Positions 5,202 through 56,565 are shown, numbered from the stretch's first letter. The stretch: 60,996 nt of DNA from Kiritimatiellia bacterium (GCA_017542055.1 JAFXXW010000007.1:1-60996), one strand, 5' to 3'. The notes: generated from the sequence alone by a model not told the origin. Translations and numbers: made by a program.

Positions 5202-5611
5202 TTTTCCACCGTCACAAGACTCATCTTGCGGATCTTGCACTTGTAGATGATTTTGACCACGTTCATCACGCTGCCGTAGTTGAGCCGCTCGTCGCCGCGC
5301 ACCAGCACGGGCACGTCGGGGTCGGCTTCGGCCATCGCCTTGAGTTTTTCCTCCAGTTCCTCGGAGGTGAGCGGCTTGTCGTTGAGAAAGATGCGCCCTA
5401 CCGAGTCGACCGTGACCGTGTTGGCCTTGCCGTCCTTGGTGGGCAGCTCGTCCGTCTTGGCCTGCGGCAGGAGAATGGACACGCCCTGCTCCAGCGCGGG
5501 CAGAGTGACGATGAACGTCACGAGCAGCAGAAAGGTGAGGTCGATGAGCGAATTCATGTCGATCTGGGCTTTGGGCCGCTCCACCCGCCGCCGGCGTCTG
5601 CCTAGCGCCAT
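5198..5611 (-). CDS. exbD: Biopolymer transport protein ExbD/TolR
   Basis: 137 aa with a single TM (LIDLTFLLLVTFIVTLP) and a periplasmic domain (DPDVPVLVRGDERLNYGSVMNVV) typical of ExbD. Confidence 0.85.
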   Translation of the reverse strand: MALGRRRRRVERPKAQIDMNSLIDLTFLLLVTFIVTLPALEQGVSILLPQAKTDELPTKDGKANTVTVDSVGRIFLNDKPLTSEELEEKLKAMAEADPDVPVLVRGDERLNYGSVMNVVKIIYKCKIRKMSLVTVEK

Positions 5612-5615
5612 CGGA

Positions 5616-6341
5616 TCACTCTCCCCTGCCCTGGAACTCGCAGGCGATGCGACCGATCAGCTCGTCCGCGAAACCTTCCATGCCGGACACCACGTTGCGC
5701 ACGGTGGCGGTGAGCTTGTTGTAGGCCATCACGCCGGGAATGGCAATCAAGAGTCCCACTACGGTAGTGACGAGCGCCGACGAAATCGAAGGCGCGATGG
5801 TGGCCAGATTGGCGCTGCCGGCCGAGCCCATTTCCGCAAACGCGTCCAGCACGCCCCAGACCGTGCCCAAAAGACCCAGCATCGGCGAAAGCGCCACGAT
5901 GGTGGCTATGGCGCCCATGCCGCGTTCGACCTTGATTTCCTCCTCGTCGAGCGCGTGTTCGCAGGCGCCCTTCACGAGTTCGATTTCGCGCACGGTCAGG
6001 GCGGCGGCGTTGGGATTGCCCGACCCGCGTCCGGTGAGCATGGTGCGGGTGTTGGGGGTGAGAAGCTTGAGGAGCCGGTCGCAAGTGCGCGCGTAGATTC
6101 CCTCCAAGCAGGCGGAAGTGACGGCTGGACGGTTGCGGAAATAGTATTCGAGCACTTCCTTGTCCTCGGAGAAGTCGCGAATGAAGCGCCGCACCAGCAT
6201 GCCCATGAAGCCGAGTTCCTTGAACTTGCCGATGATGACGGCCAGCATCACCACGCTGCCCAGGAGCTGCAGAGCCACGATGCCCTGTCCCATCAGATTG
6301 GATTTAACGAAACCTTCAACCAGCGAATTGGCCAGCAGCAT
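5616..6341 (-). CDS. exbB: MotA/TolQ/ExbB proton channel protein
   Basis: LGLLGTVWGVLDAF...LVTTVVGLLIAIPGVMAYN is the conserved ExbB/TolQ C-terminal core. An alternative start at 6293 (MGQGIVAL) would remove the overlap with rnhC. Confidence 0.85.
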   Translation of the reverse strand: MLLANSLVEGFVKSNLMGQGIVALQLLGSVVMLAVIIGKFKELGFMGMLVRRFIRDFSEDKEVLEYYFRNRPAVTSACLEGIYARTCDRLLKLLTPNTRTMLTGRGSGNPNAAALTVREIELVKGACEHALDEEEIKVERGMGAIATIVALSPMLGLLGTVWGVLDAFAEMGSAGSANLATIAPSISSALVTTVVGLLIAIPGVMAYNKLTATVRNVVSGMEGFADELIGRIACEFQGRGE

Positions 6342-7323
6342 TTGTCACCTGTCCTTCCGGCGGCAGATCCTTGCGGGAAAAGCCGCATGCTTCCAGCACC
6401 TGATCGGTGGTGCGGAAATGAGTTTTGCAATGGTTCATGAGATAATTGACACCCTCGGCCTTGACCCGTTCGATGGCGAATTCCTTGACTCTGGGGTCGC
6501 TGGAACCGATGGGGAGCTTGTCTTCGGGCCGATCGCCCGACATGTCGCGCAGGAACAGCTCGCGGGCGATCACGGAGGCGGCGGCCACCGCGATGTCGCT
6601 CTCGGCCTTGTGCATCTGCACGAGTTCCGCCTTTTTCCCGCGCGGCTTGAGCGCCCGGGCGATTACCGCTTCGGTGCGCGCGAACTGGTCCACGACCACG
6701 CGGGGGCAGCCGGGCTGCTTGGTCAGCAGGTCCTCGATGGCGGTGGCGTGCGCCCAGGCGAGCATCCGGTTGATGTTGCGCATCTTGGCGTAGAGGCGAT
6801 TGTAGGCCGCGTTGCCCAGCTTGACCACCGAATAGCGCGCGGGGGTGAGCAGTTCGCGCAGCGCGGCGCCGGTTTTGAGCACCTGGGCGTCGCTCATCTG
6901 CTTGCAGTCGCGCGCGCCGAGGTCTTTCATCGCCTTGGAGAGCGTTTCGTCGGTGTAGCAGCAGCAAACCACGAGCGGACCGAAAAAGTCGCCCTTGCCG
7001 GACTCGTCGCTGCCGGCGTGCGGGGCGAAATTTTCGGGATGGAGCACGTCCTCGTAGCCGAGTTCGGCCCGCATGAGCACTTGGGGCTCGAGCGTGAAGA
7101 GGACGAAATCCTCCGCGCCCTTGCCCTGGATGCAGAGCTTGCGCTTGCCGTGCTTGACCTTCTCGTACAGCGTGGCGTTGAAGCCCGGGCCCTCGACGGA
7201 CCAGAGCGAGTAAGGTACTTCGCGCTTGCGATAGTTGCCGGACAGCATCACCCCCAGCAAGCGCTCCTGCTCGATCTCGGAGAGCTCGTAGGTGAAGACG
7301 GTCTTGCCGGGGGAGGCGTCCAT
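6316..7323 (-). CDS. rnhC: Ribonuclease HIII
   Basis: HAGSDESGKGDFFGPLVV catalytic motif, preceded by an N-terminal substrate-binding extension of about 85 aa, as in RNase HIII. Confidence 0.8.
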   Translation of the reverse strand: MDASPGKTVFTYELSEIEQERLLGVMLSGNYRKREVPYSLWSVEGPGFNATLYEKVKHGKRKLCIQGKGAEDFVLFTLEPQVLMRAELGYEDVLHPENFAPHAGSDESGKGDFFGPLVVCCCYTDETLSKAMKDLGARDCKQMSDAQVLKTGAALRELLTPARYSVVKLGNAAYNRLYAKMRNINRMLAWAHATAIEDLLTKQPGCPRVVVDQFARTEAVIARALKPRGKKAELVQMHKAESDIAVAAASVIARELFLRDMSGDRPEDKLPIGSSDPRVKEFAIERVKAEGVNYLMNHCKTHFRTTDQVLEACGFSRKDLPPEGQVTNAAGQFAG

Positions 7324-9568: not shown

Positions 9569-10666
9569 TTATTTGACTGAAAAACGGAATTCGGTGGAGC
9601 TGCGGTAGACCGCGCCCGCCTTGACGATGGTGCTGGGCCACTGGGGCTTGTTGGGCGAGTCGGGCGCGTGCTGGGTTTCCAGCGCCACGCCGCAGCGGAA
9701 GGACAGGTGTTCGCCGCCCTTCGCGGTCTGGTCGTAGGACGCCCAGTTGGCGGTGTAGACCTGGAGGCACGGCTCGGTGGTGTACACGTCCACGTTGCGT
9801 CCGTTGAGCGGGCAATAGACGCCGCCGGCATACACGAGTCCGCCCGCTCCGCCGGCCATCACGCCCTTGTTGAGCACCCAGTTGTGGTCGTAGCCCTTGC
9901 CGATCTCCAGCTGCTCGTTGCCCTCGTTGATCCGCTCGCCGATGCGCATGCCTTGGCGGAAATCGAACGGCGTGCCGTCCACCCGGGCCATGTCGCCGGT
10001 GGGGATCTGGCCCTTGTCGGTGGGGGTCACGAAGTCGGCGTCGATGGTCATGACGTGATCTTCGATGGTGCCGCCGGCCTCGCCCTTGAAGTTGAAATAG
10101 ACGTGCTGGGTCATGTTGATGGGCGTGTCCTGGTCGGGGACGGCCTCGTAGTCCACGCGCCAGATGTTGTCCTTGGTGACGGTGTAGGTCACCTTCACCT
10201 CCACCTTGCCGGGGAAGCCCTCGTCGCCGTCGGGCGAGGTGTGGGTGAAGACTACGCCCACGTCGTCGCCGCGCACGAACGGTTCCGCGCCCCAGACGTA
10301 CGCGTTCCAGCCGCGATCGCCGCCATGCAGGTTGCAGCCGATGCCGCCGGGGGCGTTGTTGAGCGCGGGGAGTTTATACTCCACGCCGTTAAGGGTGAAC
10401 TTGCCGGCGGCGATACGATTGCCGTAGCGACCGATGATGCAGCCCCAGTAGGGGTCTCCGTTGTCCCAGCCGGCGGGGGAATCGAAGCCCACCACCACGT
10501 CTTTCAGCTTGCCTTCGCGGTCGGCCGTGAAGAGCTTCACCACCTTGCCGCCGTAGTCGCTCACCTCCAGCACCATTCCGCCGGCGCCGTTAAGCGTGAA
10601 TTTGCGGGCCTTTTCGCCGTATTTGGTTACGCCGAAGTCGCTTACCGTGTAATTTGGGGTTGCCAT
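9569..10666 (-). CDS. galM: Aldose 1-epimerase (galactose mutarotase)
   Basis: NLHGGDRGW, GKGYDHNWVL and ALETQHAPDSPN motifs of the aldose-1-epimerase family. A GGAG Shine-Dalgarno lies upstream. Confidence 0.8.
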   Translation of the reverse strand: MATPNYTVSDFGVTKYGEKARKFTLNGAGGMVLEVSDYGGKVVKLFTADREGKLKDVVVGFDSPAGWDNGDPYWGCIIGRYGNRIAAGKFTLNGVEYKLPALNNAPGGIGCNLHGGDRGWNAYVWGAEPFVRGDDVGVVFTHTSPDGDEGFPGKVEVKVTYTVTKDNIWRVDYEAVPDQDTPINMTQHVYFNFKGEAGGTIEDHVMTIDADFVTPTDKGQIPTGDMARVDGTPFDFRQGMRIGERINEGNEQLEIGKGYDHNWVLNKGVMAGGAGGLVYAGGVYCPLNGRNVDVYTTEPCLQVYTANWASYDQTAKGGEHLSFRCGVALETQHAPDSPNKPQWPSTIVKAGAVYRSSTEFRFSVK

Positions 10667-10679
10667 GTTGACTCCTTTT

Positions 10680-11906
10680 TTATTCGTATCGCAAACAATC
10701 GATTGGGTTTAGTTTACTGGCGCGGTATGCCGGATAAAATCCGAAAAACATGCCGACAAACGCCGAAAATCCGAAAGAAAAGACGGCCGAAGAGGCCTCG
10801 ATGACGATCGGCCAGTGCTTGACCGCGCCGATAAGCTCGGCCACGCCCACGCCCAACGCCACGCCCAGGATGCCGCCTACCGTCGAGAGCACCATCGACT
10901 CGAGCAGGAACTGGGTGAGAATCATGAACGGCGTGGCTCCGATGGCCATCCTAAGCCCGATCTCCTTGATGCGCTCGGTCACCGACACCAGCATGATGTT
11001 CATGATGCCGATGCCGCCCACCAGAAGCGAAATGGCGGCCACCACCGTGAGCAGCACCGTCATGAGCCCCGTGACCGAACCGATCGTATTCATGATTTCG
11101 GTGGTGTCGCGGGTTTCGAAATCGTCGTCCTGGTAGTCGGCCAGCTTGTGGCGTTGGCGCAACAAGGCGGAAATCTCCTCCTTGGCCTCGTCGAGATCGT
11201 CCATGTCGTAAAGCGAAATGTTCATCATATTGATGGACTTGAAGGCCGACCCCTGCAGCACCCGCGAAACGGTGGTGTAGGGCGCCATCACCGTATCGTC
11301 CTGGTCGTCGCCCCAGTTGTTGGCACCCTTCTGGTCCAGCACGCCCACCACCTTGAACGCCATGTTCTTGACCCGGATGGTCTGGCCCACCGGGTCTTCG
11401 TCGGCGAACAGGTTGGACGCCACCGTCCCGCCGATCACGCACACCCGCGAGGCCCGGCGCTCCTCCTGCTCGTTGAAGAACCGGCCGTCCTTCATCGTCC
11501 AGTTCTTGATGTCGGGAAAATCGGTGCTCACCCCTTGCACGCGCGTGGACCAGTTCTTGTTCTGGTACATCAGCTGGCAGGCGGCGTTGACCTGGGGAGA
11601 GGCGAACTCCACCAGATGCGGCAGTTCCCGCTTGATGGCCACCACGTCTTCGGCCGTCATGGTCTGGCCGCCGCCCAGTCCCTGATGGACCGCCCCGGCC
11701 TGCTTGCGCTCGGGGAACACCATCAAAAGGTTGTTGCCCATCTGGCTAATCTCCGCCACCATCATGGCGCTGGCGCCCTTGCCGATTGCCAAAACCGCGA
11801 TGACCGCCGCGATGCCGAAAATGATGCCGAGGCACGTCAGGAGCGAACGCGTCTTGTTGCGGAAGATGGCGAGCACCGCCACTTTGAAAATCATGGCCAG
11901 GCTCAT
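10680..11906 (-). CDS. MacB/FtsX-type ABC transporter permease
   Basis: N-terminal TM, a large periplasmic domain, then three C-terminal TMs ending FYPAYRASKLNPIDCLRYE, which is typical of MacB/LolCE permeases. Confidence 0.85.
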   Translation of the reverse strand: MSLAMIFKVAVLAIFRNKTRSLLTCLGIIFGIAAVIAVLAIGKGASAMMVAEISQMGNNLLMVFPERKQAGAVHQGLGGGQTMTAEDVVAIKRELPHLVEFASPQVNAACQLMYQNKNWSTRVQGVSTDFPDIKNWTMKDGRFFNEQEERRASRVCVIGGTVASNLFADEDPVGQTIRVKNMAFKVVGVLDQKGANNWGDDQDDTVMAPYTTVSRVLQGSAFKSINMMNISLYDMDDLDEAKEEISALLRQRHKLADYQDDDFETRDTTEIMNTIGSVTGLMTVLLTVVAAISLLVGGIGIMNIMLVSVTERIKEIGLRMAIGATPFMILTQFLLESMVLSTVGGILGVALGVGVAELIGAVKHWPIVIEASSAVFSFGFSAFVGMFFGFYPAYRASKLNPIDCLRYE

Positions 11907-12601
11907 GACGCCGCCTCCCGCTTGTCGTCCCGGACGATATGGCCGTCCTTCATGAGCAGATGGCGGCCGGCGAACGCGGCGATGTCGTCCTCGTGCGTCA
12001 CCATGACGATGGTGATACCCTCCTTGGACAGCTCGGTGAAAAGGTTCATGATCTCCACCGAAGACTTGGTGTCGAGGTTGCCGGTAGGTTCGTCGGCGAA
12101 GAGCACCGGCGGCTCGTTCATGAGCGCCCGGGCGATCGCCACGCGCTGCTGCTGGCCGCCCGAAAGCTGCGCGGGCGTATGCGTGCCGCGTCCGCCCAGC
12201 CCCACGCGTTTCAAGAGCTCCAACGCCCGACGGCGCCGCTGCTTGCGCGTGAGCCGGCCCATGTACAGATCCGGCAGCTCCACGTTCTCGATGGCGCTGG
12301 TGCGCGGCAGCAGGTTGAAGTTCTGGAAGACGAAGCCCAGCTTGTGGTTGCGGATGTGCGCCAGTTCCGTGCGCGAACGTCCCGCCACCTCCACGCCGTC
12401 CAGCAGATACGTGCCTTGGGTCGGCGTGTCGAGACAGCCCAGGATATTGAGCATCGTGGACTTGCCCGATCCGGACGCGCCCATGATGGCCACGAATTCG
12501 CCCTCGTCGATGGAGAGCGAAACGCCGTCGAGCGCGCGCACCGGCTCTTCGCCTTGCGCGTAGATTTTGGACAAATCCCTTATCTCGATGAGATGGCTCA
12601 T
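11903..12601 (-). CDS. ABC transporter ATP-binding protein (MacB/LolD type)
   Basis: ORF 11903..13888 trimmed to MSHLIEIRDL. Walker A GASGSGKST, signature LSGGQQQR, Walker B VLFADEPTGNLD. ATGA overlaps on both sides. Confidence 0.9.
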   Translation of the reverse strand: MSHLIEIRDLSKIYAQGEEPVRALDGVSLSIDEGEFVAIMGASGSGKSTMLNILGCLDTPTQGTYLLDGVEVAGRSRTELAHIRNHKLGFVFQNFNLLPRTSAIENVELPDLYMGRLTRKQRRRRALELLKRVGLGGRGTHTPAQLSGGQQQRVAIARALMNEPPVLFADEPTGNLDTKSSVEIMNLFTELSKEGITIVMVTHEDDIAAFAGRHLLMKDGHIVRDDKREAAS

Positions 12602-13776
12602 TGCTTGGGGGCGGGGGCGGTACCTTTGTTCTTGCCGCGTTGCGGAGGCTTGGGCATGAAAGGATTGCTGGCGGCGTCGGCCGACTTGACGTTGCCGGTT
12701 TCGTAGCCGATGGCCACCAACCGGCCTTCCAGCGAATCGTCCTTCACCTGCGTGAACGAGGCGTCGCTGGCGCCGAATTCGGGCTGGACGGCCTCGATGT
12801 CGCCGTCCTCCTTGACCAGCCAGATTTTCTTGCCGCGCAACTCGGTGCTCTTGTCCTTGGGCCGGAAACGGAAAGCCGCCTGGGTGACCGCCAACGCGTC
12901 GTCGGCGCGGTCGGTCTCGATGGCCAGCGTGACGGTCATGCCGGGAAACAGCTTCTCGTCCCGGTTGACCGCCTCCACGATGATGGGATAGGTGACCACG
13001 TTGTTGGTGGTGGAGGAGCTGATGCGCACCTGCTTGACGACCCCGGTAAAGCGGTCGCGATAGGCGTCGGCCGTGAACGTCACCTGCTGGCCCTCGCGAA
13101 TCTCGCCCACGTCCGCCTCCGGCACCGAGGCCTCGATCCAGATGGTTTTGAGATCTTCGGCGATGGTCAAAAGCCCCACCGCGTTCATCGACGAGACGAC
13201 CGTCTGCCCTTCGTCCACCGAACGCGTGATCACCACTCCGTTGACGGGACTGACGATGGTGCAGTAGTCCAGATTGGCTTGGGCCTGGCTGACCGACGCC
13301 TTGGACTGTTCGACCGACGCCTTGGCGGCCGCCAGCTGGGCCACCGCGCTGTCCCGCGCCTCGATGGCCGAATCGAGATCCGCCTCCGAGCACGACATCG
13401 ACTCGCGCAGTTTCTGCTTGCGGGCCAAGGTCTTTTCCGCATAGGCGAGCGTGGCTTCGCGCAACATCACGTTGGCCTCGTTCTGGTGCAATTGCGCCAC
13501 CGCGCTGTCGTAGTTGGCCCGGTAGACCAAAGGATCGATTTCCGCCACCACCTGGCCGTTGGTGACCACCGAATTGTAGTCCACGTACAGCTTGACGATC
13601 TTGCCGTTCACCTGCGCGCCCACTTCCACCTTCTTGATGGGCGTGACCGTGCCGGTGGCCTCGACGGTGGAAACGATGTCGGTGCGGCTGATGGGTGCGG
13701 TCTTGTAGACCGGTGCCTTTTCCTTGGGCGCGCCGAACAGCGACAACGCCAGAAGTGACGCCACGATCGGATTCAT
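12598..13776 (-). CDS. HlyD/MacA-family periplasmic efflux adaptor
   Basis: N-terminal anchor, coiled-coil hairpin segment (AQLHQNEANV...AKASVEQSKASVSQAQANLDY) and a beta-barrel/MP domain layout. Confidence 0.8.
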   Translation of the reverse strand: MNPIVASLLALSLFGAPKEKAPVYKTAPISRTDIVSTVEATGTVTPIKKVEVGAQVNGKIVKLYVDYNSVVTNGQVVAEIDPLVYRANYDSAVAQLHQNEANVMLREATLAYAEKTLARKQKLRESMSCSEADLDSAIEARDSAVAQLAAAKASVEQSKASVSQAQANLDYCTIVSPVNGVVITRSVDEGQTVVSSMNAVGLLTIAEDLKTIWIEASVPEADVGEIREGQQVTFTADAYRDRFTGVVKQVRISSSTTNNVVTYPIIVEAVNRDEKLFPGMTVTLAIETDRADDALAVTQAAFRFRPKDKSTELRGKKIWLVKEDGDIEAVQPEFGASDASFTQVKDDSLEGRLVAIGYETGNVKSADAASNPFMPKPPQRGKNKGTAPAPKQ

Positions 13777-29325: not shown

Positions 29326-29334
29326 TGAAGTAAT

Positions 29335-29363
29335 AGTATATCATATTCCGCCCGAAAAATCAA
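29335..29363 (-). promoter_or_regulatory. Promoter of the nifS-led gene array (TTGATT-17nt-TGATATACT)
   Basis: Reverse strand: TTGATT (29363-29358), TGATATACT (29343-29335). Only 9 nt separate the -10 box and the nifS ATG (29325). Confidence 0.6.
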
Positions 29364-29465
29364 GCAGAATCTTGGATTTTCGATTTATGATTTTCGATTT
29401 GCGATTGTCCAATCGACAATCCCTCAATACAATCCTAAATCTAAAATCGTAAATCCTAAATCACA

Positions 29466-29554
29466 GGGGGGGTGCCCACCCCCTCCACCTATCGCCCAAT
29501 AGGGCGTCACCCCCTCGCCCCGTATGGCGACACCCCGGGGGGTGCCCACCCCCC
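29466..29554. repeat. Two copies of palindromic GGGGGGTGCCCACCCCC box
   Basis: Copies at 29466-29483 and 29537-29554, 71 bp apart. GGGGGTG / CACCCCC arms. Confidence 0.8.
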
Positions 29555-29556
29555 TC

Positions 29557-29685
29557 GAAGGTCACCCCCTGCGCTCCGCGGAAGTCAACCCCCGCGCTCC
29601 GCGAAGGTCATACCCGTGCTCCGCAGAGGTCATGGGTCGGGCTCCGCAGAGGTCCAAACCAAGCTCCGCGAAGACCCTATCATAC
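29557..29685. repeat. Iteron-like array, family I (GCTCCGCRRAGGTCA, 5 clear units)
   Basis: GCTCCGC starts at 29573, 29596, 29618, 29641 and 29663 (22-23 bp period). Degenerate GTCACCCC-type units extend leftward to about 29500. Confidence 0.85.
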
Positions 29686-29700
29686 ACTCCGGGCGAAAAT

Positions 29701-29872
29701 TTCAATACCCAAAAAGTGTGTATTGAAACCGGGTTTAGGGCAATTCAATACACAATTTTGGTGTATTGAATGTGTATTGAAATGTGAAAAGGGTGTAAGC
29801 AGAAAGTGGTATAAAATCAAAAATAATGATAAATATTACTATATATTATACTACTATTTATTTTCAATACAC
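29701..29872. repeat. GTGTATTGAA boxes (6 copies, both orientations) flanking an AT-rich tract
   Basis: Boxes at 29701-08 (partial), 29716-27, 29744-53 (inverted), 29761-70, 29771-81 and 29863-72 (inverted). 29808-29870 is almost pure A/T. Confidence 0.8.
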
Positions 29873-29914
29873 CGTACACAGCCAAATACCCCCCTCTCCG
29901 AATTTTGCCCTTTT

Positions 29915-30484
29915 TTAGCCTTTTTTGAGAGAGGGGGGGTGTTGCGTGTGTACTGAGTGTATATTCACAAAAACGGCATTTTCGGCCCAGAGTTTGCGCA
30001 AGGCGGACACCATTCGCCCTTCGAAGGCGCTTGCTAGCTCTGGGGTGTCAAAGACAGTATCGGACGTTTTATCCAGAAAATGGAAATCTGTCAGAATCGA
30101 AATGAGCTCCCCATACACCTGAGCACAAATCGTTTTGGCGCGGGCGGCGGCATTAAGGAGGAACTTTTCCAGTGCCCGGCAGGCAATCTCGTGATCTTTG
30201 ATGACATTGATAAAGAGGTCGGTATCTTCCACGAGTTCGCCTGCTTCATCCTCGAAACTATAATCGAAAGCGGACGAAAACGCCAAACACTTGCAGATCC
30301 GGCCTAACGAAAGGCGCTCCAGCGGCTTCATATCGCCTTCGATCACGCATTGCGCAGCCTTGTCGAGCGCGACCAGGTCAGCTTGAATTTCCCCCGGAGA
30401 TCCAACTTTCCGGGTGTATTCCTCGCTCAATTCCCACTCGGCCGCTTCGTACGCCGACTCTTCCGTAAGTTTTTCGCTATTCAT
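29915..30484 (-). CDS. Hypothetical acidic protein (189 aa), no recognisable motif
   Basis: Only long ORF in this stretch. Lies 16 nt downstream of the helicase gene on the same strand. Codon usage is AT-richer than the core genes. Confidence 0.5.
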   Translation of the reverse strand: MNSEKLTEESAYEAAEWELSEEYTRKVGSPGEIQADLVALDKAAQCVIEGDMKPLERLSLGRICKCLAFSSAFDYSFEDEAGELVEDTDLFINVIKDHEIACRALEKFLLNAAARAKTICAQVYGELISILTDFHFLDKTSDTVFDTPELASAFEGRMVSALRKLWAENAVFVNIHSVHTQHPPSLKKG

Positions 30485-30500
30485 GATAAAATCGCTCCTT

Positions 30501-32276
30501 TCACGCCTTTTCGTTCAGGAAGTAAAGCTTGGCGCCTTGACGAAGACCCTGCTTTACGAGTATGAGCCCGCGCTCCACCAGCATCGCCTCGATATTGTCC
30601 ATTTCCTTTATGTCGGAAATATGGCTGCCTTTGGAGACCGTTCCACGTTTGAGTCCGGTGGGAACATTGTGCTCTTTGATATACTGGTAGACGCGCAAGA
30701 GCTTTTTCTCTTTTTCGTCCACGTTCATGAATTTCTTGGACTGCGCAATGACGCGCGCAATAATGGACTGACACAGTTCCCATGCCCAGTTTACGCCTTC
30801 GAGCGTGACGACTGGCTCTTTGGGATCTTGACTGATGGCGTAGAGGAGCGCCAGCTTGCCCGTCTGCTCGATCGCGCGACCCCAAATGGCCATGCCGGAA
30901 TCGTCGCCCTTGCGCGAGAGTTTGTCGATGAGCGCGTCCATCTGCTTGGCGAGCTCTTTGAAGCGCTCCTTGACGCCGGGACCGTCCTGCGCGAGTCGGC
31001 GTTGGGGCATTTCGCGATCGAAGAAGTCGGGGTTGAGTTCGATCGTCTTATGGAGGTCGTCCACGAGTTCCGGGGGAATCGTCACCGCCGCTTTGCGATC
31101 TTCGTTACGCTTCGGGAGTAGGCGCGTTTCGATGATGACGCAGCGATTCAAAAGTCCGCTCAAAATCGTCTTTTCGGTAATTTCCTCGTAAAAGAGCGTG
31201 GGCGTGGCGCAGCCGAAAATGGTGAGGGATGGATTCACGGCCACCGGGGCGCTCTCGCTTTTGCCGTAGCTCGATTTGGCGCGGGCGCGGGCGCGATGGA
31301 CCGTTTCGCTGGCGGAAAAGATTTGCAAAAGGTAGTTGTAGAACGCATCCCCGCCGCCCTGCCGCTTGTCGTTCATGACATGCAGGAGATTGCTGATTTC
31401 ATCGATCTGGAAGATGGCGCTGGGCGATTCGATGATAGCGTCTTCCGTGGCTTGGCCGGACGCAGGCTGCTCGTAGAACGACCGGGCGATTTGCAGTTTG
31501 TGTCCGATGGCCATATTGACCGAGCGCGGCTTTTGCTTGCCGAAGGTTGAGGGCGCCACCAGGATGATGTAGAGGTTGGGGTACGTGCCGCGCGAGTCGG
31601 TGTAGTTGCGTCCGGCGAGGTGCGAAAGGACAGCGAGTGCGCCCGCGAGCGCGATGGCGCGGTTGGGGTGGACGGCGCTTTCCAGGGTGACGTTCATGAT
31701 CCGGTCGATGAGACCCGGCACGTGCGTGAGCTTTTCGGGCGTGGAATAGAGGTCGGCGAGGTTTTCCTCTTCGTTGGACGCGAGCTCGCCTAAGAGCGAG
31801 GCCACGGCGCGATAGTCGGCGCGCAGGACATCCATTTCGCGCTGGAGCGCGTCCACCCGGAGACCGACGGTCAGCGAAGGATCCTGCATGATCCGGATGA
31901 TGTGCTCCTGGTAGTTGCCGAACATGTCGGCGAACTTGAGGAACGCCACGTCTTCGACGTCGATCTTTTCGGGCACGGAGTCCACGAGTCCGCTAAAGGT
32001 GCGCCGGGGGTCGTCGCAGTTGCGCGCGAGGATGTTCTGACGCGTTTCGCGCGCGTCGTCCGTCTCTTCGTCGCCCGCTTTGAGGATTTCGGGGAAGGCG
32101 TCGCGGAATACGGGATCGTTGAATTTTATGCTTTCGAGCCCCGCTCCCAAAACGATAGGAAACATGGCTTTCGGACGGAATACCATCGCAGCGATAACCC
32201 GTGTCTCGCGCCGCTGCCGCTCGAGCTTGATCTCGGCTTGCAGTTGTTCCTGCTTCTTCTGTTCTTCTTCAGTCAT
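30501..32276 (-). CDS. DUF3987-type (P4 alpha / VirE-like) replicative helicase with DnaB-N-like start and C-terminal winged-helix
   Basis: P-loop LVAPSTFGKQKP, Walker-B-like IFQIDEISNLL, then NPSLTIFGCATP and LLNRCVIIE segments resembling Pfam DUF3987. The N-terminus (ETRVIAAMVF...IKFNDPVFRDAF) resembles DnaB-N. Recognised by eye only. Confidence 0.55.
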   Translation of the reverse strand: MTEEEQKKQEQLQAEIKLERQRRETRVIAAMVFRPKAMFPIVLGAGLESIKFNDPVFRDAFPEILKAGDEETDDARETRQNILARNCDDPRRTFSGLVDSVPEKIDVEDVAFLKFADMFGNYQEHIIRIMQDPSLTVGLRVDALQREMDVLRADYRAVASLLGELASNEEENLADLYSTPEKLTHVPGLIDRIMNVTLESAVHPNRAIALAGALAVLSHLAGRNYTDSRGTYPNLYIILVAPSTFGKQKPRSVNMAIGHKLQIARSFYEQPASGQATEDAIIESPSAIFQIDEISNLLHVMNDKRQGGGDAFYNYLLQIFSASETVHRARARAKSSYGKSESAPVAVNPSLTIFGCATPTLFYEEITEKTILSGLLNRCVIIETRLLPKRNEDRKAAVTIPPELVDDLHKTIELNPDFFDREMPQRRLAQDGPGVKERFKELAKQMDALIDKLSRKGDDSGMAIWGRAIEQTGKLALLYAISQDPKEPVVTLEGVNWAWELCQSIIARVIAQSKKFMNVDEKEKKLLRVYQYIKEHNVPTGLKRGTVSKGSHISDIKEMDNIEAMLVERGLILVKQGLRQGAKLYFLNEKA

Positions 32277-32286
32277 AGCGCCTCAT

Positions 32287-32316
32287 ATTATACCATATTT
32301 TCCGCCCCTTTGTCAA
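32287..32316 (-). promoter_or_regulatory. Promoter of helicase gene (TTGACA-18nt-TGGTATAAT)
   Basis: Reverse strand: TTGACA (32316-32311), TGGTATAAT (32295-32287). 10 nt separate the -10 box and ATG 32276. Confidence 0.65.
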
Positions 32317-32318
32317 GT

Positions 32319-32535
32319 CCCAATTCCCCCGCGGGACATTTCCCAATTCCCCCGCAGGACTTTTGCCAAATCTCCCGCAGGACTTTCCCCAATTCCCCCG
32401 CAGGGCTTTCCCCAAGTCTCCGTGCAGACTCCAAAAAGTCTACACGCTCACTTTGCAAAGTGTGCACGTAAACTTTCAAAAGTCTACACGCTCACTTTAC
32501 CCAAGTCTCCGTGCAGACTTTACAAAGTCGAGACG
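32319..32535. repeat. Iteron-like array, family III (~10 contiguous 21-24-bp units, CCAAnTCTCCnnGCAGACTTT / AAAGTCTACACGCTCACTTT)
   Basis: Unit starts at 32319, 32342, 32366, 32388, 32411, 32432, 32455, 32477, 32499 and 32521. The same family recurs at 56978-57063. Confidence 0.85.
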
Positions 32536-32551
32536 ATAAATATGTTTGACT

Positions 32552-33901
32552 CTATGCCTTTTTCTGCATACTCATTGCCGAATAGCCGGCAAGTATAGCG
32601 AAGAACGGGATCATTATGTACCTATAACGAGTTGCCGTAATCGGGCCAATGACAGCTGCGAGCAGGATGATACTAAGCAAAGGACTCAATACCAACAAGT
32701 AGCCGCCAAACGACAAGTCTTTATATCGCCGTATGCTTTTAATTGCGCCAATCGCTACCAGCAAATATCCTCCCAGCAGAACCAGCCAACTTACTATCTG
32801 CACACCGGCACCAAGCGCCTTTTCGCCTAAGGTATATGGCGTTTCATATTGCACCTGGTAACCGCGCGCCACACCTGAACTCCACATGTTGTCAAGCGCG
32901 TCGCAAGTTCTTTCCAGTCCCAAGTATCGCAGCAATGCAACCGTTCCGGTTCCCGCATACAAACGCGGATGGGTTTTCGCCGTATATATCATATACTCCG
33001 GCAGGTGAGCCATTAATTGCTCCCGCGCATACTTACCCATAAGTTTCGACCGTTTCATCAAATCGTAATCGGCAATTTCACTTTCAAACCGTTCCATATC
33101 GGCGAGAACCGCTTCCTTCTCTCCGACCGGGAGCAGCTGCGCCAGCCTCCCCCAATTGCAACTGTAAAGATTGGTTCCGGAAATCGACGTAATTCCGGCT
33201 GTTCCAAATGCCAACTTGTTTCTGACCATCCAAGGACTCAAACCAATCGCCACTATCGCAACCCCGGCCACTACCATTGCCAGTTTCTTTTTCCAGGTTG
33301 ACCCATACACCAGTATCAGCGCCAAGATAAACGCCAATGCCAACGGGATGCAAATTGGCTTGGCATAAATTGCCACCACAAAGGAAATAAACGAGCCAAT
33401 CAAGCACTTGACGTTCCCGTTAACCCCTCTAAAATAAAGCCACAACGCCACTATCACCGAAGACACCGCCAACTGATCGGGCATGTGGAATAGCGAATAA
33501 ATAACCGTATCGGGCATAAACAGCAATACCGCCACGCCTAACGTAATTTGAGTATCTCCAAACGAAAACGGCTTGTTCCGGAGCAAAGCAATCATTGCTA
33601 TAATGCCTACTACCACCAACAGAATATTGATTAATCCCGCAATATGCTGAGTGGCCGGCACCGAACCGGTAGCCCAATAGACCGCTGCCATTATTCCTGG
33701 CCACAACGGCATGTCGTGGGCAGATGGCATCGGGGCGTCAGACTGCGCAGTCGAAAACACCCCATGATCGATTAGATTGATACTTTCCGTCAGATAGCGA
33801 AGCCCATCATCACCCTCCGGCGAAGATTGAAATGCCCATAGGCACAGTCGCAACCCCACCCCGGCAATTACAACCCACTTCAACCACTTACTTCCCTTCA
33901 T
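32552..33901 (-). CDS. Polytopic GT-C-type glycosyltransferase (ArnT/PMT/GT39-like)
   Basis: ORF 32552..34099 trimmed to [11 protein letters not shown] (33901). Roughly 11-12 TM segments with an early acidic loop ([11 protein letters not shown]), as in GT-C enzymes. Family call is by architecture only. Confidence 0.5.
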
Positions 33902-35411
33902 GATATTCTTCCTCGGTATTGACGTTCCAAACTGTGGATTTGGCGGTTTCACCCAAGAGCGCACGAACCGCCTCGATGCCGCAAAGCATGGAGTGGTCCA
34001 TATTGTTATAACGATGCTGCCCGTTCCGGCCAATGCAGTAGAGGTTACCGAAACCATCCAGCCAATCGCGCACCTTGCCGAATTCGGCATAGGAACCAAA
34101 ATAGGCGGGATAAGCCTTCTTCACCTTGATGCGAACGCTCTTGATGACCGGCTCGTCCGCTCCCAACACCCCGATATGACGCAACTCCTCAACCGCCATA
34201 TCGATGAATGGCTTGTCTTCCATCGTCCAGAACTTGTCCCCTTCCGTGCAGAAGTATTCAAGCCCCACCCAAACATGCTTGGTAACATCGTCCACCATAT
34301 AAGGCGACCAGTTGTTGAAGATTTGGATGCGACCCATCCTTACGTCACGCTCCTGCACGTAGATCCAAGTGTCGGGTACGATATTGTTGACCGTCTTGAA
34401 CTGCGTCTGATTCTTGATGGCCAACTTGTCGACCAACAGGCCCACCGTGATAAAGTCGCGATAAGGCAACTCTGACGCGATTTTGGCTACTTCGGCCGGT
34501 TTCTGGTCGAATGCGGCAACCAGGTCTTTGACCGGCATCGAGGAGAAGACCGCATCGCACTCGAGGCGCGTACCGTCTTTCAGCTTGACCGCCTTTACCT
34601 GTCCGTCTTTGGTCTCGATGCCGACCGCTTGCGCGTTCATCCGCACCTCTACGCCCATACCGCGCAATTTGGCCGCCATAGTCTCCCAAAGCTGTCCCGG
34701 GCCTTTCTTGGGATAGATAAACTCGTCAATCAGCGAGGTTTCCTTCTTGCCGCCTTTGGGGATGAAAATGTTGAGGATGGCCTTCCACAGCGAGAGACCC
34801 TTTACTCGCTGGGCACCCCACGAAGGATCGATTTTGGACGGATGGATGCCCCACAACTTCTCGGTATAGTCCTCGAAGAACATCGAGTAAAGCACCTTGC
34901 CAAAGCGATTGATATAAAAATCTTCCAACGAGTTTTCGGGCCGCTTCTTGATTGCGCTATAAAGATAACTCCAACCGGCTTTCCAGGTACGAATCAGCCC
35001 CATCGCGATAAAGGTGGCCGGCTTGATGGAAATGGGATAATCGAAGAAATGGCGCAGATAGTAGATGCGGCTCACGCGATGCCGGCGCAGCATCACTTCG
35101 TCGGTCTCTTCCGGATCGGGACCGCATGCTTCCACGTGACATTCGCGCCCGAGGATCGTGTCATCCTTGGCGGGCTTGCCTTGAATAGGCATCAGCTCGG
35201 CCCAAAGATCGTTCACCTCTTTCGACTTGGAGAAGAACCGATGCCCTCCAATATCGATGCGGCATCCCTCATAAACCGCAGTGCGCGAAATGCCGCCTAT
35301 TTCGGATGTCTCTTCAAGCACCACCACATCCCAATCCCGGGCCTTGCGCTTCAGTTCGTACGCGGCAGTAAGTCCCGCCGGACCCGCCCCGATAATAACG
35401 GCTCTTTTCAT
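33888..35411 (-). CDS. NAD(P)/FAD-dependent oxidoreductase (amine-oxidase / UDP-galactopyranose-mutase-like fold)
   Basis: N-terminal dinucleotide-binding motif [16 protein letters not shown]...[10 protein letters not shown]. 507 aa, soluble. Confidence 0.7.
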
Positions 35412-35857
35412 TTGTTGCCAACTCCTTTGTCATTGAAAATAAGCAGCTTGCGACCTAGATAATTCCACACCAGCACAGCACCGGTCACGAATACTTTGAC
35501 TATCATATAATTCCAATCGAGAATCTCAATGCCGAACCACATACCAATCTCGGTCAGCACCAGGCCTAAGAGCCCGATTATCCCAAAGACCAGAAACGCC
35601 CCGAAGCTACGCCCCTTCCCTTTATCCTTCGCCTGCGTGAACACAAACCACAGCGATAGCGCGTAATTGACCGCCAACCCGACGATAAAGCCAAACACGG
35701 TTGCGATATACACGCCCAGCGCCCAGTCCTTGAGAAAACACTCCTGCACCAACACCAACGTTCCAAAGTCCGCCAGAAAAGCGATCCCGCCCACGATAAC
35801 ATAACGCAAAAACTCACCTGCCAATATCTTGGCCGATGCAACTACGCCTGTCTTCAT
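35408..35857 (-). CDS. gtrA: GtrA-family membrane protein
   Basis: 149 aa with four TMs. N-terminal [17 protein letters not shown] motif typical of GtrA-like proteins. GGAG Shine-Dalgarno upstream. Confidence 0.7.
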
Positions 35858-36164
35858 TATCGTTTACGCTCTCCTTTCCGCCCCTCCACCCGCACGGAAA
35901 AGAAAAAGGGCGATTCTAGTCCGTGTCTCAAGTGAGGCTCTGGAATGCCCGATACGAAACACGTTAGAATACGCCCAGAGGACGCACTCCATACCATGTG
36001 TGACTCGTATCGTAGAAATTTTCCAGATTTCACTTGAGCCAACATAGCAGAATGCTAAGTTGAATTGTCGCGCTCCTGCACTCGCAGTGGCGACGCGTGC
36101 CGGGTAAAGACTCCCATCTTCCCGGCTATGACAAAGATCAAATCGGGGGATTTCCCCGTTAGAT
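35858..36164 (-). other. ~305-nt untranslated leader (possible cis-regulatory RNA) between promoter module B and gtrA
   Basis: No convincing ORF. The minus-strand transcript contains hairpins CGGGGAAAUCCCCCG, GCCGGG-16nt-CCCGGC and GUCGC..CUGC-GAGU-GCAG..GCGAC. Confidence 0.4.
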
Positions 36165-36165
36165 G

Positions 36166-36275
36166 CTAATATTATACCATATTCCCACCCTTTCCGTCAA
36201 GCGGAAAGTGCGAAAACTCCTAAACTCCAAAACTCCCCCGAGCGAAAGCAACTCCCCTCCCCGTCAAGCGGGAAA
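36166..36275 (-). promoter_or_regulatory. Conserved promoter module, copy B (TTGACG-18nt-TGGTATAAT plus upstream tract and second CCGTCAAGCGG box)
   Basis: Reverse strand: TTGACG (36200-36195), TGGTATAAT (36179-36171). CCGTCAAGCGG boxes at 36194-36204 and 36261-36271, 67 bp apart, as in copy C. Confidence 0.65.
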
Positions 36276-55927: not shown

Positions 55928-56565
55928 CACTTCTTCACCTCTTCTTCCTTGCCCTTCTTGATCACTTCGGGAGCCTTCTCGCCCTGGGCCGCGCCGGCCG
56001 GCGCGTCTTCCGGAGCCTTGACCACCGCCAGCGCCAGTTCGCCGCGCGTAACCACCGTCTGCTTGTCGCCAAGCTGCAGGTCGCGCACGAAGAGCGTCTG
56101 GTCGAGACCGAGACCCGACACGTCGATTTCGAATTTCTCCGCGATATCCTCGGGCAGGCACTCCACGTCGATCGTACGGAGCACCTGCTCCAGCACGCCG
56201 CCGCCCAGCTTCACGCCGACCGCTTCGCCCACGAGATACACCGGAACCGTCACGCGCACCTTTTCGGTCAGCGACACTTCGCTGAAGTCCACGTGAATGG
56301 GCGTACCCGCCAGCACGTCGTTCTGCATTTCGCGCATCAACGCCGGAACTTCCCGGCCGTCCATATCCAGCGTGACGAGCAGCTGCTTGCTGGCGTGTCC
56401 ACGCATGGCCATCATGAAGTCGTGCGCCGGCAGCTTGATGAGCTCCGTCCCGCCCTTCCTCATTTTCATGACGCTGCCGGGTATCATGCCCGTGCGGCGC
56501 AAACGGCGAACCGCCCCCGTACCTTGCTCGGTGCGAGGCTCCGCCTTGATCCTGATCTGATCCAT
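55927..56565 (-). CDS. rplY: 50S ribosomal protein L25 / general stress protein Ctc
   Basis: 212 aa with RRLRRTGMIPG... and HVDFSEV motifs, plus the long Ctc-type C-terminal domain. Confidence 0.85.
   Translation of the reverse strand: MDQIRIKAEPRTEQGTGAVRRLRRTGMIPGSVMKMRKGGTELIKLPAHDFMMAMRGHASKQLLVTLDMDGREVPALMREMQNDVLAGTPIHVDFSEVSLTEKVRVTVPVYLVGEAVGVKLGGGVLEQVLRTIDVECLPEDIAEKFEIDVSGLGLDQTLFVRDLQLGDKQTVVTRGELALAVVKAPEDAPAGAAQGEKAPEVIKKGKEEEVKK

Follow-up and report, generated by a model that had tools for sequence, protein, structure and literature searches.

We conclude that positions ~29330 to 32545 of the window (by which we mean the whole 60,996-nucleotide stretch of ruminant-gut Kiritimatiellia chromosome that was analyzed) are probably an integrated, still functional small mobile replicon that has no recombinase of its own and circulates in Kiritimatiellia of the ruminant gut. 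This module of ~3.2 kb adjoins nifS and contains two genes, encoding a phage-type DUF3987 helicase and a small orphan partner, together with a repeat-rich putative origin (Table 1). Its right boundary, at ~29330, is a few bases from the nifS ATG (29325), and its left boundary is a few bases past the stop codon of a PMT_2 gene (32552). Every repeat family, the A+T tract, the two genes, and the consensus promoter are confirmed at the positions described, and their clustering is far above chance. An earlier reading of this DNA from its sequence alone (the sequence-only reading) placed a replicon-type module at 29466 to 32535. The DUF3987 helicase, the phased iterons, and the A+T-rich element support that claim, but the interval was ~140 bp too short for the conserved module. 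The module lies within a low-GC region (~29.3 to 36.2 kb; GC of 0.50 to 0.54, versus 0.61 to 0.66), of which further low-GC DNA, with GtrA, FAD oxidase, and PMT_2 genes, borders it. Its foreignness to the chromosome and the absence of an integrase nearby, both part of that reading, are supported. The suggestion that it might be an autonomous origin kept in the chromosome finds no support, and GC skew does not switch at the module.

Table 1. Features of the module, with positions counted from the first nucleotide of the window
Feature	Position	Strand	Description
Right-end promoter	29335..29363	-	TTGATT-17-TATACT with TG; reads into nifS with almost no leader
Heptamer arrays	29375..29462		GATTTTC-type x4.6 (29375-29406); inverted AATCCTA-type x4.6 (29431-29462)
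GC-rich hairpin block	29467..29553		two identical 17-bp palindromes enclosing two small hairpins
Downstream array	29545..29678	-	six phased 22-23-bp repeats; unit on the rep-coding strand GACCTYYGCGGAGC
Putative origin core	29701..29872		five GTGTATTGA boxes, A+T tract, sixth box
Inverted repeat CCCCCCCTCTC...GAGAGGGGGG	29869..29958	-	end of the 189-aa gene, then T-rich sequence
189-aa protein gene	29915..30484	-	acidic, helical; obligatory helicase partner
591-aa Rep gene	30501..32276	-	DUF3987 family
rep promoter	32287..32316	-	TTGACA-18-TATAAT; 12/12 matches, TG extension
Upstream array	32318..32415	-	four to five 23-bp AAAGTCCTGCGGGRGAWTT units; ends at the -35 hexamer of the rep promoter
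Left-end block	32414..32545		22-bp family in mixed orientation; AAGTCTGCACGGAGACTT and AAAGTGAGCGTGTAGACTTT units

The larger gene encodes a 591-residue protein, Rep, and its interpretation as a helicase gene with its own consensus promoter is borne out by a PF13148 match and by the promoter itself. The ATG is 10 nt past the -10 hexamer, and the promoter is near-identical in all copies, even those in which Rep is only 34% identical. The DUF3987 (PF13148) match scores 29.9 bits against a gathering cutoff of 27, covers residues 344 to 506, and is the sole Pfam match of the protein; of the DUF3987 and primase profiles proposed as a check on Rep, only the former detects its domain. Rep also matches phrog_3022, annotated as "DNA primase" (2.8e-61), and this match is limited to profile positions 339 to 710 of 788. 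The protein consists of a helical N-terminal domain (~residues 1 to 170), an MCM-like P-loop/AAA+ core, and a C-terminal winged helix. The best fold matches of its AlphaFold model (pLDDT of 78) are MCM7, ORC1, Cdc6, and RuvB, in agreement with published work that places DUF3987 proteins among the SF6/MCM-like helicases and gives them a C-terminal wHTH (PMC4889955). The literature sees in this family the replicative helicases used by phages and mobile elements (PMC4889955, PMC5862659). The Walker A motif of Rep is ..FGKQ and its Walker B motif is IDE; in the family as a whole, Walker A is atypical (GK[DEQ]) and the DE of Walker B is conserved. Because Walker A is atypical, the ATPase activity of Rep is assumed.

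The affinities of Rep point to phages. Its database matches include 292 phage records versus 1 plasmid record, its nearest outgroup sits in a phage replication module, and its remoter relatives are PrimPol + PriCT_1 fusions whose similarity is confined to the C-terminal 60% of the protein. Neither a primase domain nor a primase gene is found in the module; the N-terminal 170 residues are helical, have no primase match, and have no match of any kind outside this small family. On the evidence of homology and predicted fold, we conclude that Rep is an MCM-like DUF3987 helicase, kin to the phage PrimPol-helicases, with a helical domain in the place of the primase. No plasmid Rep-type initiator (Rep_3/RepA/pi/TrfA, double winged helix) is present in the module, in which Pfam finds only DUF3987 and the fold is MCM/ORC-like. 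The theta-plasmid iteron model offered by the sequence-only reading (R6K, RK2, F) thus does not suit the initiator, given the record counts, the fold matches, and the phage descent of this MCM-like protein.

The 189-aa gene is found after every Rep homologue, and the family of its product has 7 representatives among 1.84 billion proteins. This protein has no match in Pfam, PHROG, NCBIfam, or PADLOC, and it is modeled as a helical bundle (pLDDT of 69) with no fold match.

Judging from its architecture, the putative origin lies just 3' of the operon. Six GTGTATTGAA boxes (starting at 29701, 29718, 29744, 29761, 29772, and 29863) occur in both orientations, five of them (29701 to 29781) on one side of an A+T tract and the sixth (29863 to 29872) on the other. 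The tract extends from ~29808 to 29862 (55 bp), and its best 50-nt stretch is 90% A+T. At ≤1 mismatch, the window has 7 GTGTATTGAA matches versus 1.28 expected, a number reached in 0 of 100 shuffles, which confirms the six boxes around an A/T stretch that had been described. The positions and orientations of the boxes (+,-,-,+,-,+) are kept in four copies, and all six change sequence together between copies, from GTGTATTGA to GTGTATTSA to GTGCATTCA. Even in the relative with a 34%-identical Rep, CAAGATAGCACA boxes flank that copy's own 92% A+T tract on both sides. The concerted change could also be explained by gene conversion among the boxes. Between L014 and L099, two of the related loci, there are 33 differences in Rep; these are clustered in residues 81 to 150 and in the winged helix (542 to 553), and the helicase core holds 4 of them. 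We consider the short inverted GTGTATTGA boxes, not the 23-bp repeats, most likely to be the elements associated with melting. With the consensus TTATCCACA, which may not be that of Kiritimatiellia, no DnaA box is found at ≤1 mismatch in the noncoding origin region, and matches over the whole window are at chance level. The inverted repeat at the end of the 189-aa gene, which two degenerate boxes (29946 to 29967) overlap, is probably the terminator of the operon; in the alignment its pairing is kept by change on both sides (TCTC/GAGA in the window, TCCC/GGGA in L014 and L099).

Two arrays of phased repeats flank the operon and have the core CTGCGG(G)AG in common, in the same orientation. In the downstream array, GCTCCGCRRAGGTC units start at 29573, 29596, 29618, 29641, and 29663, a spacing of 22 to 23 bp, and a degenerate sixth unit occupies 29545 to 29565, so the five units and the degenerate copy to their left were correctly recognized by the sequence-only reading. 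The loose GCTCCGCRRAGGTC pattern alone is no rarer than chance over the window (22 of 100 shuffles), but its phased clustering is. The number of units in this array varies between copies. The upstream pattern, AAAGTCCTGCGGGRGAWTT, has 4 matches in the window versus 0.07 expected, and an array of three to four units is at the same place in L003, L014, and L099; two short contigs, L011 and L012, begin within it. What had been taken for a second array of ~10 units by the rep promoter does consist of repeats, but of two families, the AAAGTCCTGCGGGRGAWTT units (32318 to 32415) and the 22-bp units (32414 to 32535). The block formed by the latter family is 91% identical to L014 positions 6648 to 6839 and is absent from L003 and L099.

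The hairpin block contains two exact copies of the GGGGGGTGCCCACCCCC palindrome (29467 to 29483 and 29537 to 29553), as previously claimed, and between them the small hairpins CGCCC-AATA-GGGCG and TCGCC-loop-GGCGA. Its single-stranded folding z-scores are -2.4 and -2.0, it recurs in L003, L014, L099, and the end of L011, and one hairpin loop is inverted between copies that are 98.8% identical. The heptamer arrays (GATTTNN), which the earlier reader overlooked, are part of the conserved module; they surround a small palindrome directly upstream of the right-end promoter, and within the window CGATTTA is confined to them. They are kept in L014 and L003, and their place in L099 is taken by 13 direct heptamers. 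The right-end promoter is ~90% identical over 43 nt to the right ends of L014 and L099, which face different genes, and it is of a type widespread among promoters of this lineage. In the window and at L014 and L099, the promoter of the gene next to the right module end either adjoins that end or is provided by it. The left end is shortened to differing extents among the copies, a pattern more in keeping with recombination or decay than with precise transposition. Heptamer-array similarity is the sole link between the two ends, and it is limited to L014. The copies share no consistent target duplication or att repeat, in line with the earlier claim that no att-like duplication is visible; L099 alone has an 11-bp flanking repeat, which lies inside a promoter motif common in these genomes.

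The identical 591-aa protein is found in at least two unrelated chromosomal contexts, the window and L003, whose shared DNA is 98.8% identical over window positions 29619 to 32386, plus the hairpin block. At L003 the neighbors of the module are a Schlafen/AlbA_2 protein and a DNA methylase, with further low-GC DNA. Relatives of Rep at 81 to 84% and 34% identity fill three more contexts (84% for L014, 82% by global alignment for L099, and 34% for L011). At L099 the insert is the bare module of 3.1 kb, with a kinase-LRR gene on one side and fabD on the other; the low-GC stretch there coincides with the module, and the genes on both sides are housekeeping genes of host composition. From the fabD promoter onward, loci L100 and L101 match L099 at 97.9% identity, but they do not have the module; by this comparison, one species is polymorphic for its presence. 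Both reading frames are intact in all copies (at least 8). The dN/dS values are 0.18 to 0.35 for rep and 0.26 to 0.33 for the 189-aa gene, and the window differs from L003 by 7 synonymous and 0 nonsynonymous changes. Both module genes are under purifying selection. The near-identical and related intact copies at other chromosomal sites indicate that the module is a live mobile element. The sequence-only reading had named, as evidence that would count against it, relatives with the interval at the same place and of native composition; relatives instead carry the module elsewhere. Its description of the interval as a remnant cannot be reconciled with intact frames, purifying selection, and 98.8%-identical copies in unrelated contexts. 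No circular contig with the module was found, and the module has no matches in IMG/VR or in 185,579 GTDB species genomes.

No integrase, transposase, or partition gene is found among the Pfam-annotated genes of window positions 20.5 to 42.3 kb or among 20 further large open reading frames (ORFs), so the earlier statement to this effect holds for the genes and ORFs scanned in the 61-kb window. There is also no integrase within 10 kb of the minimal L099 copy, and no transposase or partition gene next to it. The marks of insertion sequences and transposons (a transposase, terminal inverted repeats, and a consistent target-site duplication) are absent from the module, as are an AlpA- or Stl-type regulator and any packaging or capsid-redirecting gene, since neither module gene matches such families.

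We propose that Rep, an MCM-like DUF3987 helicase that homology and predicted fold show to descend from the phage PrimPol-helicases and that has a helical N-terminal domain instead of a primase, acts as the initiator. It would read the six GTGTATTGA boxes via its C-terminal winged helix, perhaps together with its N-terminal domain, and would melt the 90% A+T tract and load itself, like SaPI Rep proteins. Because the element has no primase, the host or a helper must do the priming; a possible single-strand initiation site is the GC-rich hairpin block beside the repeats. The two 22- to 23-bp arrays probably bind Rep or its 189-aa partner, which would shut off rep and pair the arrays, and this binding may provide copy-number control and silencing while the module is integrated, as with P1 incC/incA. 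These assignments of repeats to proteins are drawn from position and co-variation only. Integration and excision might be carried out by a function acting in trans (from the host, a helper phage, or another element) or by recombination at the promoter-like ends, the right one of which would abut or supply the promoter of the neighboring host gene, here nifS. Replication of the module is deduced, and neither replication nor excision has been observed.

It is possible, if unlikely, that the module is instead a minimal phage satellite, silent in the chromosome until a helper phage induces it and allows its excision, replication, and packaging, supplying both recombinase and primase. The phage descent of the Rep helicase domain and the SaPI-type origin layout would fit such a satellite, small satellites of the PICMI type have a DUF3987 primase as a marker gene, and, like satellites, relatives of the module bring anti-phage genes along (AbiEi/AbiEii at L011 and PDC-M21A/B at L014); at L003, the Schlafen/AlbA_2 protein and DNA methylase adjoin the module. 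However, all described satellite families encode an integrase (PMC10803314), and here there is none, nor are there att repeats, a satellite-type regulator, packaging functions, or IMG/VR matches. The absence from IMG/VR is weak negative evidence on helper-phage transfer. We think it improbable that the module is a dead or domesticated leftover of a plasmid or phage whose promoters and repeats survive as regulatory DNA of its neighbors. The lack of integrase, primase, and partition genes, the variably shortened left ends, the promoter at the right end, and the atypical Walker A motif could all be read in this way, but a leftover does not account for purifying selection on both genes with no broken frame in at least 8 copies, for 98.8% identity between unrelated contexts, for a species polymorphic for the module, or for six boxes that change in concert with their geometry kept.

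Related loci often have defense-gene neighbors and both proteins are rare orphans, as would be expected of a two-gene anti-phage or stress system that travels in defense islands and uses the repeats as operator sites. This explanation is more improbable still: neither protein matches a PADLOC model, the minimal L099 copy lies between housekeeping genes, and bidirectional boxes, a 90% A+T tract, phased repeats, and hairpins 3' of a winged-helix helicase are origin-like, not operator-like. Least probable of all is that the module travels as cargo in larger mobile elements, with their integrases beyond the stretches examined, so that the different contexts are different large elements. The further low-GC DNA that borders the module in the window and at L003 is what cargo would show, but at L099 the module by itself makes up the low-GC stretch, between housekeeping flanks and with no integrase within 10 kb, and the ORFs scanned in the window include no integrase either. 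The integrated mobile replicon is our preferred reading.

This replicon has parts in common with several known systems. In SaPI origins, iterons follow rep closely and flank an A+T-rich center in opposite orientations, and a self-loading helicase reads them through its winged helix (PMC9371898). The module resembles SaPIs and other PICIs in having an AAA+ SF3/SF6-type self-contained initiator-helicase with a C-terminal winged helix, an origin directly downstream of the operon with short, oppositely oriented repeats around an A+T-rich center, and a repeat sequence that co-varies with Rep; like phage satellites, it has its own initiator-helicase and, to judge by architecture, a cognate origin. 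Unlike them, it has a DUF3987 helicase rather than one of the SaPI Rep types; it has no pri or primase domain, integrase, master repressor, or packaging genes; it has additional 22- to 23-bp phased arrays, a hairpin block, and heptamer arrays; and it is 3.2 kb rather than ~15 kb in size. With P1 incC-repA-incA and P4 ori/crr it shares one family of direct repeats on both sides of rep, a spacing of about two helical turns, and one set placed at the rep promoter, which suggests autoregulation and array pairing. It has the 17- to 23-bp phased direct repeats of iteron theta replicons and an A+T-rich unwinding element adjoining them, but not the plasmid Rep-type initiator (a Rep_3/RepA-type winged-helix dimer), DnaA boxes in the origin, singly or as a cluster, or partition genes, and the repeats on either side of its A+T tract belong to a different, shorter family. 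P4, in addition, has its own integrase and primase-helicase.

Homology to the phage PrimPol-helicase DUF3987 fusions and to PICMI covers the helicase core and the C-terminal winged helix. In the module, however, a helical domain replaces the primase domain and the gene pair is free-standing, outside a phage replication module, whereas PICMI always have int, alpA, and fis. The AEP or DnaG primase that accompanies DUF3987 helicases, fused or adjacent, is missing, as the 189-aa neighbor is no primase. In the oriV of IncQ plasmids (RSF1010), iterons are followed by a G+C-rich and an A+T-rich segment and then by palindromic single-strand initiation sites. The succession of boxes with A+T tract, phased repeats, and GC-rich hairpin block in the module is similar, but the module has neither a RepB primase nor a RepC initiator, its helicase is unrelated to RepA, and a role for its hairpins is a guess at z-scores of -2.4 and -2.0.

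To our knowledge, almost nothing has been described of the mobile elements in Kiritimatiellia and other PVC bacteria. If our reading is correct, the module is among the smallest self-contained rep-ori modules integrated in bacterial chromosomes, is far below the size of every phage satellite described so far, and moves without encoding an integrase. A bolder proposal, which we regard as doubtful, is that it represents a new class of mobile element, a ~3-kb, two-gene, recombinase-less replicative hitchhiker that would enter promoter or intergenic sites via its promoter-like ends, adjoin or provide the promoter of the host gene downstream, and, when triggered, fire its origin in situ, thereby amplifying or mobilizing itself and adjacent cargo such as defense genes. 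The module is a compact system in which to ask how a primase-less, MCM-like DUF3987 helicase initiates replication, what its 189-aa partner does, and how an element without an integrase changes sites, and it may seed a replicon or vector for gut bacteria that currently have no genetic tools.

An earlier, sequence-only reading of this region had called the 591-aa protein (Rep) a DUF3987-type helicase, and Rep does pass the Pfam DUF3987 model (29.9 bits; cut-off, 27). The profile phrog_3022, annotated as "DNA primase," matches Rep at 2.8e-61, with the match limited to positions 339 to 710 of its 788 positions, which are the helicase half of the profile. The module contains neither a primase domain nor a primase gene. 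Relatives of Rep number 11 among 5.8 billion proteins; 4 are full length, and the remainder are PrimPol and PriCT_1 fusions, whose match is confined to the C-terminal 60%. A tblastn search with Rep found 292 phage records (annotated primase/helicase) and 1 plasmid, and the nearest outgroup lies within a phage replication module beside AAA_24, DUF669, RusA, and a DEAD helicase. In the AlphaFold model of Rep (pLDDT, 78), the ~170 N-terminal residues form a helical domain, followed by an alpha/beta P-loop core and, at the C terminus, a winged helix. Its best PDB fold matches are MCM7, ORC1, Cdc6, archaeal MCM, and RuvB (E down to 1e-5), and these MCM/ORC-type matches agree with the published view of DUF3987 proteins as MCM-like SF6 replicative helicases whose C terminus carries a wHTH (PMC4889955; PMC5862659). 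Walker B is IDE and is conserved; Walker A is unusual, FGKQ, with GK[DEQ] family-wide. The Rep family profile found 0 relatives in GTDB species genomes and IMG/VR. Taken together, homology and predicted fold show Rep to be an MCM-like DUF3987 helicase of phage descent.

In all relatives, rep is followed by the 189-aa protein, whose identity falls to 29% in the most distant of them. Among 1.84 billion proteins this orphan has 7 representatives, and its structure model predicts a helical bundle (pLDDT, 69); the best E value in a fold search with this model was 0.49, and family searches were also without a match. For both proteins, a PDB sequence search gave nothing significant, and NCBIfam and PADLOC gave 0 matches.

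When checked against the window sequence, every feature listed by the sequence-only reading was found where that reading had placed it. Its "second array of ~10 units" does consist of repeats, but these belong to two families rather than one. The heptamer arrays were absent from its list. Coordinates are collected in the table.

Positions of the module parts and of other features (window coordinates unless a contig is named)
Feature	Position	Remarks
Heptamer arrays (GATTTNN)	29375-29406; 29431-29462	second array inverted
Heptamers, L099	12776-12866	13 direct units
GGGGGGTGCCCACCCCC palindromes	29467; 29537	two exact copies
Hairpin region	29484-29536; L003 12475-12562; L099 12664-12760	
Degenerate GCTCCGCRRAGGTC-type unit	29545	sixth unit
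GCTCCGCRRAGGTC units	29573, 29596, 29618, 29641, 29663 (starts)	n = 5; spacing 22-23 bp
GTGTATTGAA boxes	29701-29781; 29863-29872	n = 6; both orientations
Promoter-like site	29838-29867 (-)	TTGAAA-18-TATAGT, 10/12
591-aa ORF (rep)	30501-32276 (-)	189-aa ORF comes next
AAAGTCCTGCGGGRGAWTT 23-bp units	32318-32415	four to five; array stops at -35 hexamer
22-bp family	32414-32535	mixed orientation
Low-GC gene group	32552-35857	
Promoter and leader to GtrA	35858-36200 (-)	31-nt block at L003 15890-15920
TTGAC-N6-GGGNGGAAATATGRTATAAT promoters (first bases)	318, 412, 32316, 36200, 39122, 56669, 58416, 60351	
Second low-GC stretch	56000-58500	G+C 0.51-0.56

The GTGTATTGAA box has 7 matches in the window compared with 1.28 expected, a number reached in 0 of 100 shuffles, and the AAAGTCCTGCGGGRGAWTT units have 4 matches compared with 0.07 expected. 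The tract enclosed by the boxes is 90% A+T over 50 nt, and the promoter of the 591-aa ORF is a perfect TTGACA-18-TATAAT with a TG extension. No DnaA boxes were found in the putative origin. An Rfam search of the window and of L003, a second locus with a module copy, in gathering and E-value modes returned tRNA-Pro only, leaving the module and the 290-nt leader before GtrA without a match.

In the window and in the copies at L003, L014, and L099, the order of parts along the direction of rep is identical. The 22-bp family or its leftover is followed by the 23-bp array, the rep promoter, rep, the 189-aa gene, and a terminator-like inverted repeat, in which a change between copies affects both sides and keeps the pairing. 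Then come one box, the A+T tract, five boxes, the 22- to 23-bp repeats, a palindrome, two small hairpins, a second palindrome, the heptamer arrays, and an outward-reading promoter. The positions and orientations of the six boxes (+,-,-,+,-,+) are fixed across copies, while their sequence shifts in concert: the window and L003 have GTGTATTGA, L014 has both GTGTATTGA and GTGTATTCA, and L099 has GTGCATTCA. In a relative with 34% identity, unrelated CAAGATAGCACA boxes flank its own 92% A+T tract on either side. The Rep proteins of L014 and L099 differ at 33 positions, of which 19 are in residues 81 to 150 and 6 in the winged helix (542 to 553), with just 4 in the helicase core. Such clustering would be expected of a Rep that reads the boxes.

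SaPI origins have six to twelve short iterons in opposite orientations directly downstream of rep; the iterons flank an A+T-rich centre, and a self-loading helicase binds them through its winged helix (PMC9371898). The arrangement of boxes and A+T tract 3' of the rep operon matches this description, and the putative origin of the module is of the SaPI type. We infer origin activity from the architecture and, from position and co-variation, which protein would bind which sites. The promoter-like site inside the A+T tract reads towards the boxes and repeats, and transcription from it across the putative origin could play a part in origin activation.

Other parts of this region vary between copies. 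Between copies with 98.8% identity elsewhere, the loop of one small hairpin (stem TCGCC/GGCGA) has opposite orientations: it reads ATACGG in the window but CCGTAT in both L003 and L014. The two small hairpins of L099 are swapped in order. The inversion looks like a flip at a palindrome via template switching or hairpin processing. The heptamers, directly upstream of the outward promoter, are direct and inverted in the window and L014 and all direct in L099. Heptad operators are used by ribbon-helix-helix partition/repressor proteins such as omega of pSM19035; the arrays recall these operators, but the module encodes no such protein.

On the rep coding strand, the units upstream of the operon are AAAGTCCTGCGGGAG and those downstream are GACCTCTGCGGAGC. 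They form one family with the core CTGCGG(G)AG, oriented alike on both sides, and the upstream array runs up to the -35 hexamer of the rep promoter. Plasmid P1 has an incC-repA-incA arrangement and P4 an ori/crr pair, and the arrays flanking the operon look similar. By analogy with P1, they would probably autoregulate rep and restrain the putative origin. The upstream array, promoter, and first codons of the window have 91 to 93% identity to those of L011/L012, although the Rep of these copies is only 34% identical; this block may be either swapped by recombination or read by something conserved.

Contigs that encode the identical 591-aa protein fall into two groups with unrelated neighbours. 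In the window, the order is ogt, GtrA, FAD oxidase, PMT_2, module, and nifS; in L003, L004, and L006, the module is preceded by hisG, a sigma factor, a protein kinase, and 614-aa and 118-aa proteins and followed by a Schlafen/AlbA_2 protein and a DNA methylase. The DNA common to these contexts is 98.8% identical over window positions 29619 to 32386, plus the hairpin block, and the chief difference is repeat-unit number. Several 2- to 3-kb contigs consist of the two genes alone, broken off in the repeats, as assemblies do where a sequence exists in more than one version. More distant copies, in three further contexts, are those of L014 (84% Rep identity; a 210-kb contig with an AbiE-like PDC-M21A/B pair between the 23-bp array and rep), L011 (34%; AbiEi/AbiEii separates the repeats from the hairpin block), and L099 (82% by global alignment). 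The last, on a JGI contig, is a bare 3.1-kb insert between a kinase-LRR gene and fabD, and both flanks are housekeeping genes of host composition.

Two contigs, L100 and L101, are 97.9% identical to L099 starting at the fabD promoter; where L099 has the module, they have a 7-kb island that includes an Mrr_cat-nSTAND3 gene, so that one species is polymorphic for the module. The L099 and L003/L004 hosts have an AcrB-OEP-HisG stretch in common at 87% identity, with the module at different sites. By sequence comparison, both cases show recent movement of the module. The fabD-upstream site is a hotspot: L100 has its island there (1-6930; G+C, 40 to 50%), L099, another strain of that species, has the module (9805-12871), and in a related species panD is directly upstream of fabD.

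Where the module begins and ends is less uniform. Its left end is truncated variably among copies, and among terminal inverted repeats just the heptamer arrays of L014 resemble one another. An integrase, transposase, or partition gene was absent from the called genes and scanned large ORFs of the window, in agreement with the sequence-only reading, and also from the 10-kb surroundings of the L099 copy; terminal overlap, sought as a sign of circular forms, was present in 0 of 7 short contigs (L007 to L013). The synteny comparison at nifS that had been proposed yielded relatives but no empty site, the closest in GTDB being 70 to 76% identical and having only nifS and the next small ORF in common. 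At fabD, same-species contigs lack the module but carry the different island, which does not give the exact ends. The sequence-only reading saw no att-like duplication in the window, and L099 alone among the copies is flanked by a direct repeat, TTCCGCTTGAC (10 of 2,000 shuffles), which is the -35 region of the fabD promoter. Its significance in shuffles is overstated, since the word belongs to a promoter type common in these genomes, TTGAC-N6-GGGNGGAAATATGRTATAAT, with eight occurrences in the window. Homology between L099 and module-free L100 starts exactly at the fabD -35 element. The right-end promoters of the window and L014 are ~90% identical to one another, above the general consensus, though they face different genes. 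In relatives, the promoter ahead of nifS is also of this type and lies equally close to the ATG, and the nifS promoter of the window may be native, element-borne, or a hybrid. A reasonable guess is that the module would enter at or beside promoters via a recombinase acting in trans or via short promoter homology.

The eight window promoters resemble one another far past the two hexamers, and the type also precedes nifS and fabD in relatives, frequently 9 to 13 nt ahead of the ATG, which suggests leaderless or near-leaderless mRNAs. A TTGACG..TATAAT promoter with its first 17 transcribed bases (31 nt) is 97% identical between the window, where it precedes the ~290-nt leader to GtrA, and L003, where it precedes a ~330-nt leader to a DNA methylase gene. 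No Rfam family matches either of these leaders.

The window is chromosomal and carries genes for aconitase, hisB, formate-tetrahydrofolate ligase, holA, lgt, a tRNA synthetase, and tRNA-Pro. The nearest relatives of its NifS (70 to 76%) and FabD (82 to 83%) come from Kiritimatiellae genomes that were assembled from the gut of cattle, goats, and deer, which indicates that the host is an uncultured ruminant-gut member of the Kiritimatiellia. G+C drops from 0.61-0.66 to 0.50-0.54 over ~29.3 to 36.2 kb. The low-GC genes beside the module encode a GtrA-like protein, a 507-aa FAD oxidoreductase (NF005546, 738 bits), and a PMT_2-type membrane glycosyltransferase; they look like a surface-glycan modification cassette and are missing beside other module copies. 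The second low-GC stretch has an Acyl_transf_3 membrane acyltransferase, family-less ORFs, and two strong promoters (56669 and 58416). Within rep (31001 to 32000), GC skew is +0.165, compared with -0.06 to -0.22 in stretches of same-strand neighbours, so that the codon/strand composition of rep is unlike that of host genes. Cumulative GC skew peaks at ~10000 to 11000, 19 kb off the module, changing from positive to negative where gene orientation switches. An origin at a GC-skew switch was rejected for the module, on either side of which the skew sign is equal.

The sequence-only reading had offered an integrated plasmid or satellite remnant, with iterons of the theta-plasmid kind. Decay does not fit the copies: both frames are intact in all of them, and the module occurs in several contexts. 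The dN/dS of rep is 0.18 to 0.19 between the window and the 82 to 84% relatives and 0.35 between L014 and L099; that of the 189-aa gene is 0.26 to 0.33; and between the window and L003 the two genes have 7 synonymous and 0 nonsynonymous changes. These ratios show both genes to be under purifying selection. The phased repeats do resemble plasmid iterons in their spacing, but the initiator, an MCM-like DUF3987 helicase, is of a different type, and membership in an iteron-plasmid family is ruled out by it. So is membership in any described satellite family, the module having none of their integrase, regulator, and packaging functions.

Alignments of the copies show a conserved architecture with co-varying parts, multiple contexts, and within-species polymorphism. 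Based on these properties, we regard the module as probably the integrated and still live form of a small mobile replicon. It would rely on other functions for priming and for change of place, and its workings would be closest to those of a SaPI's rep-ori core.
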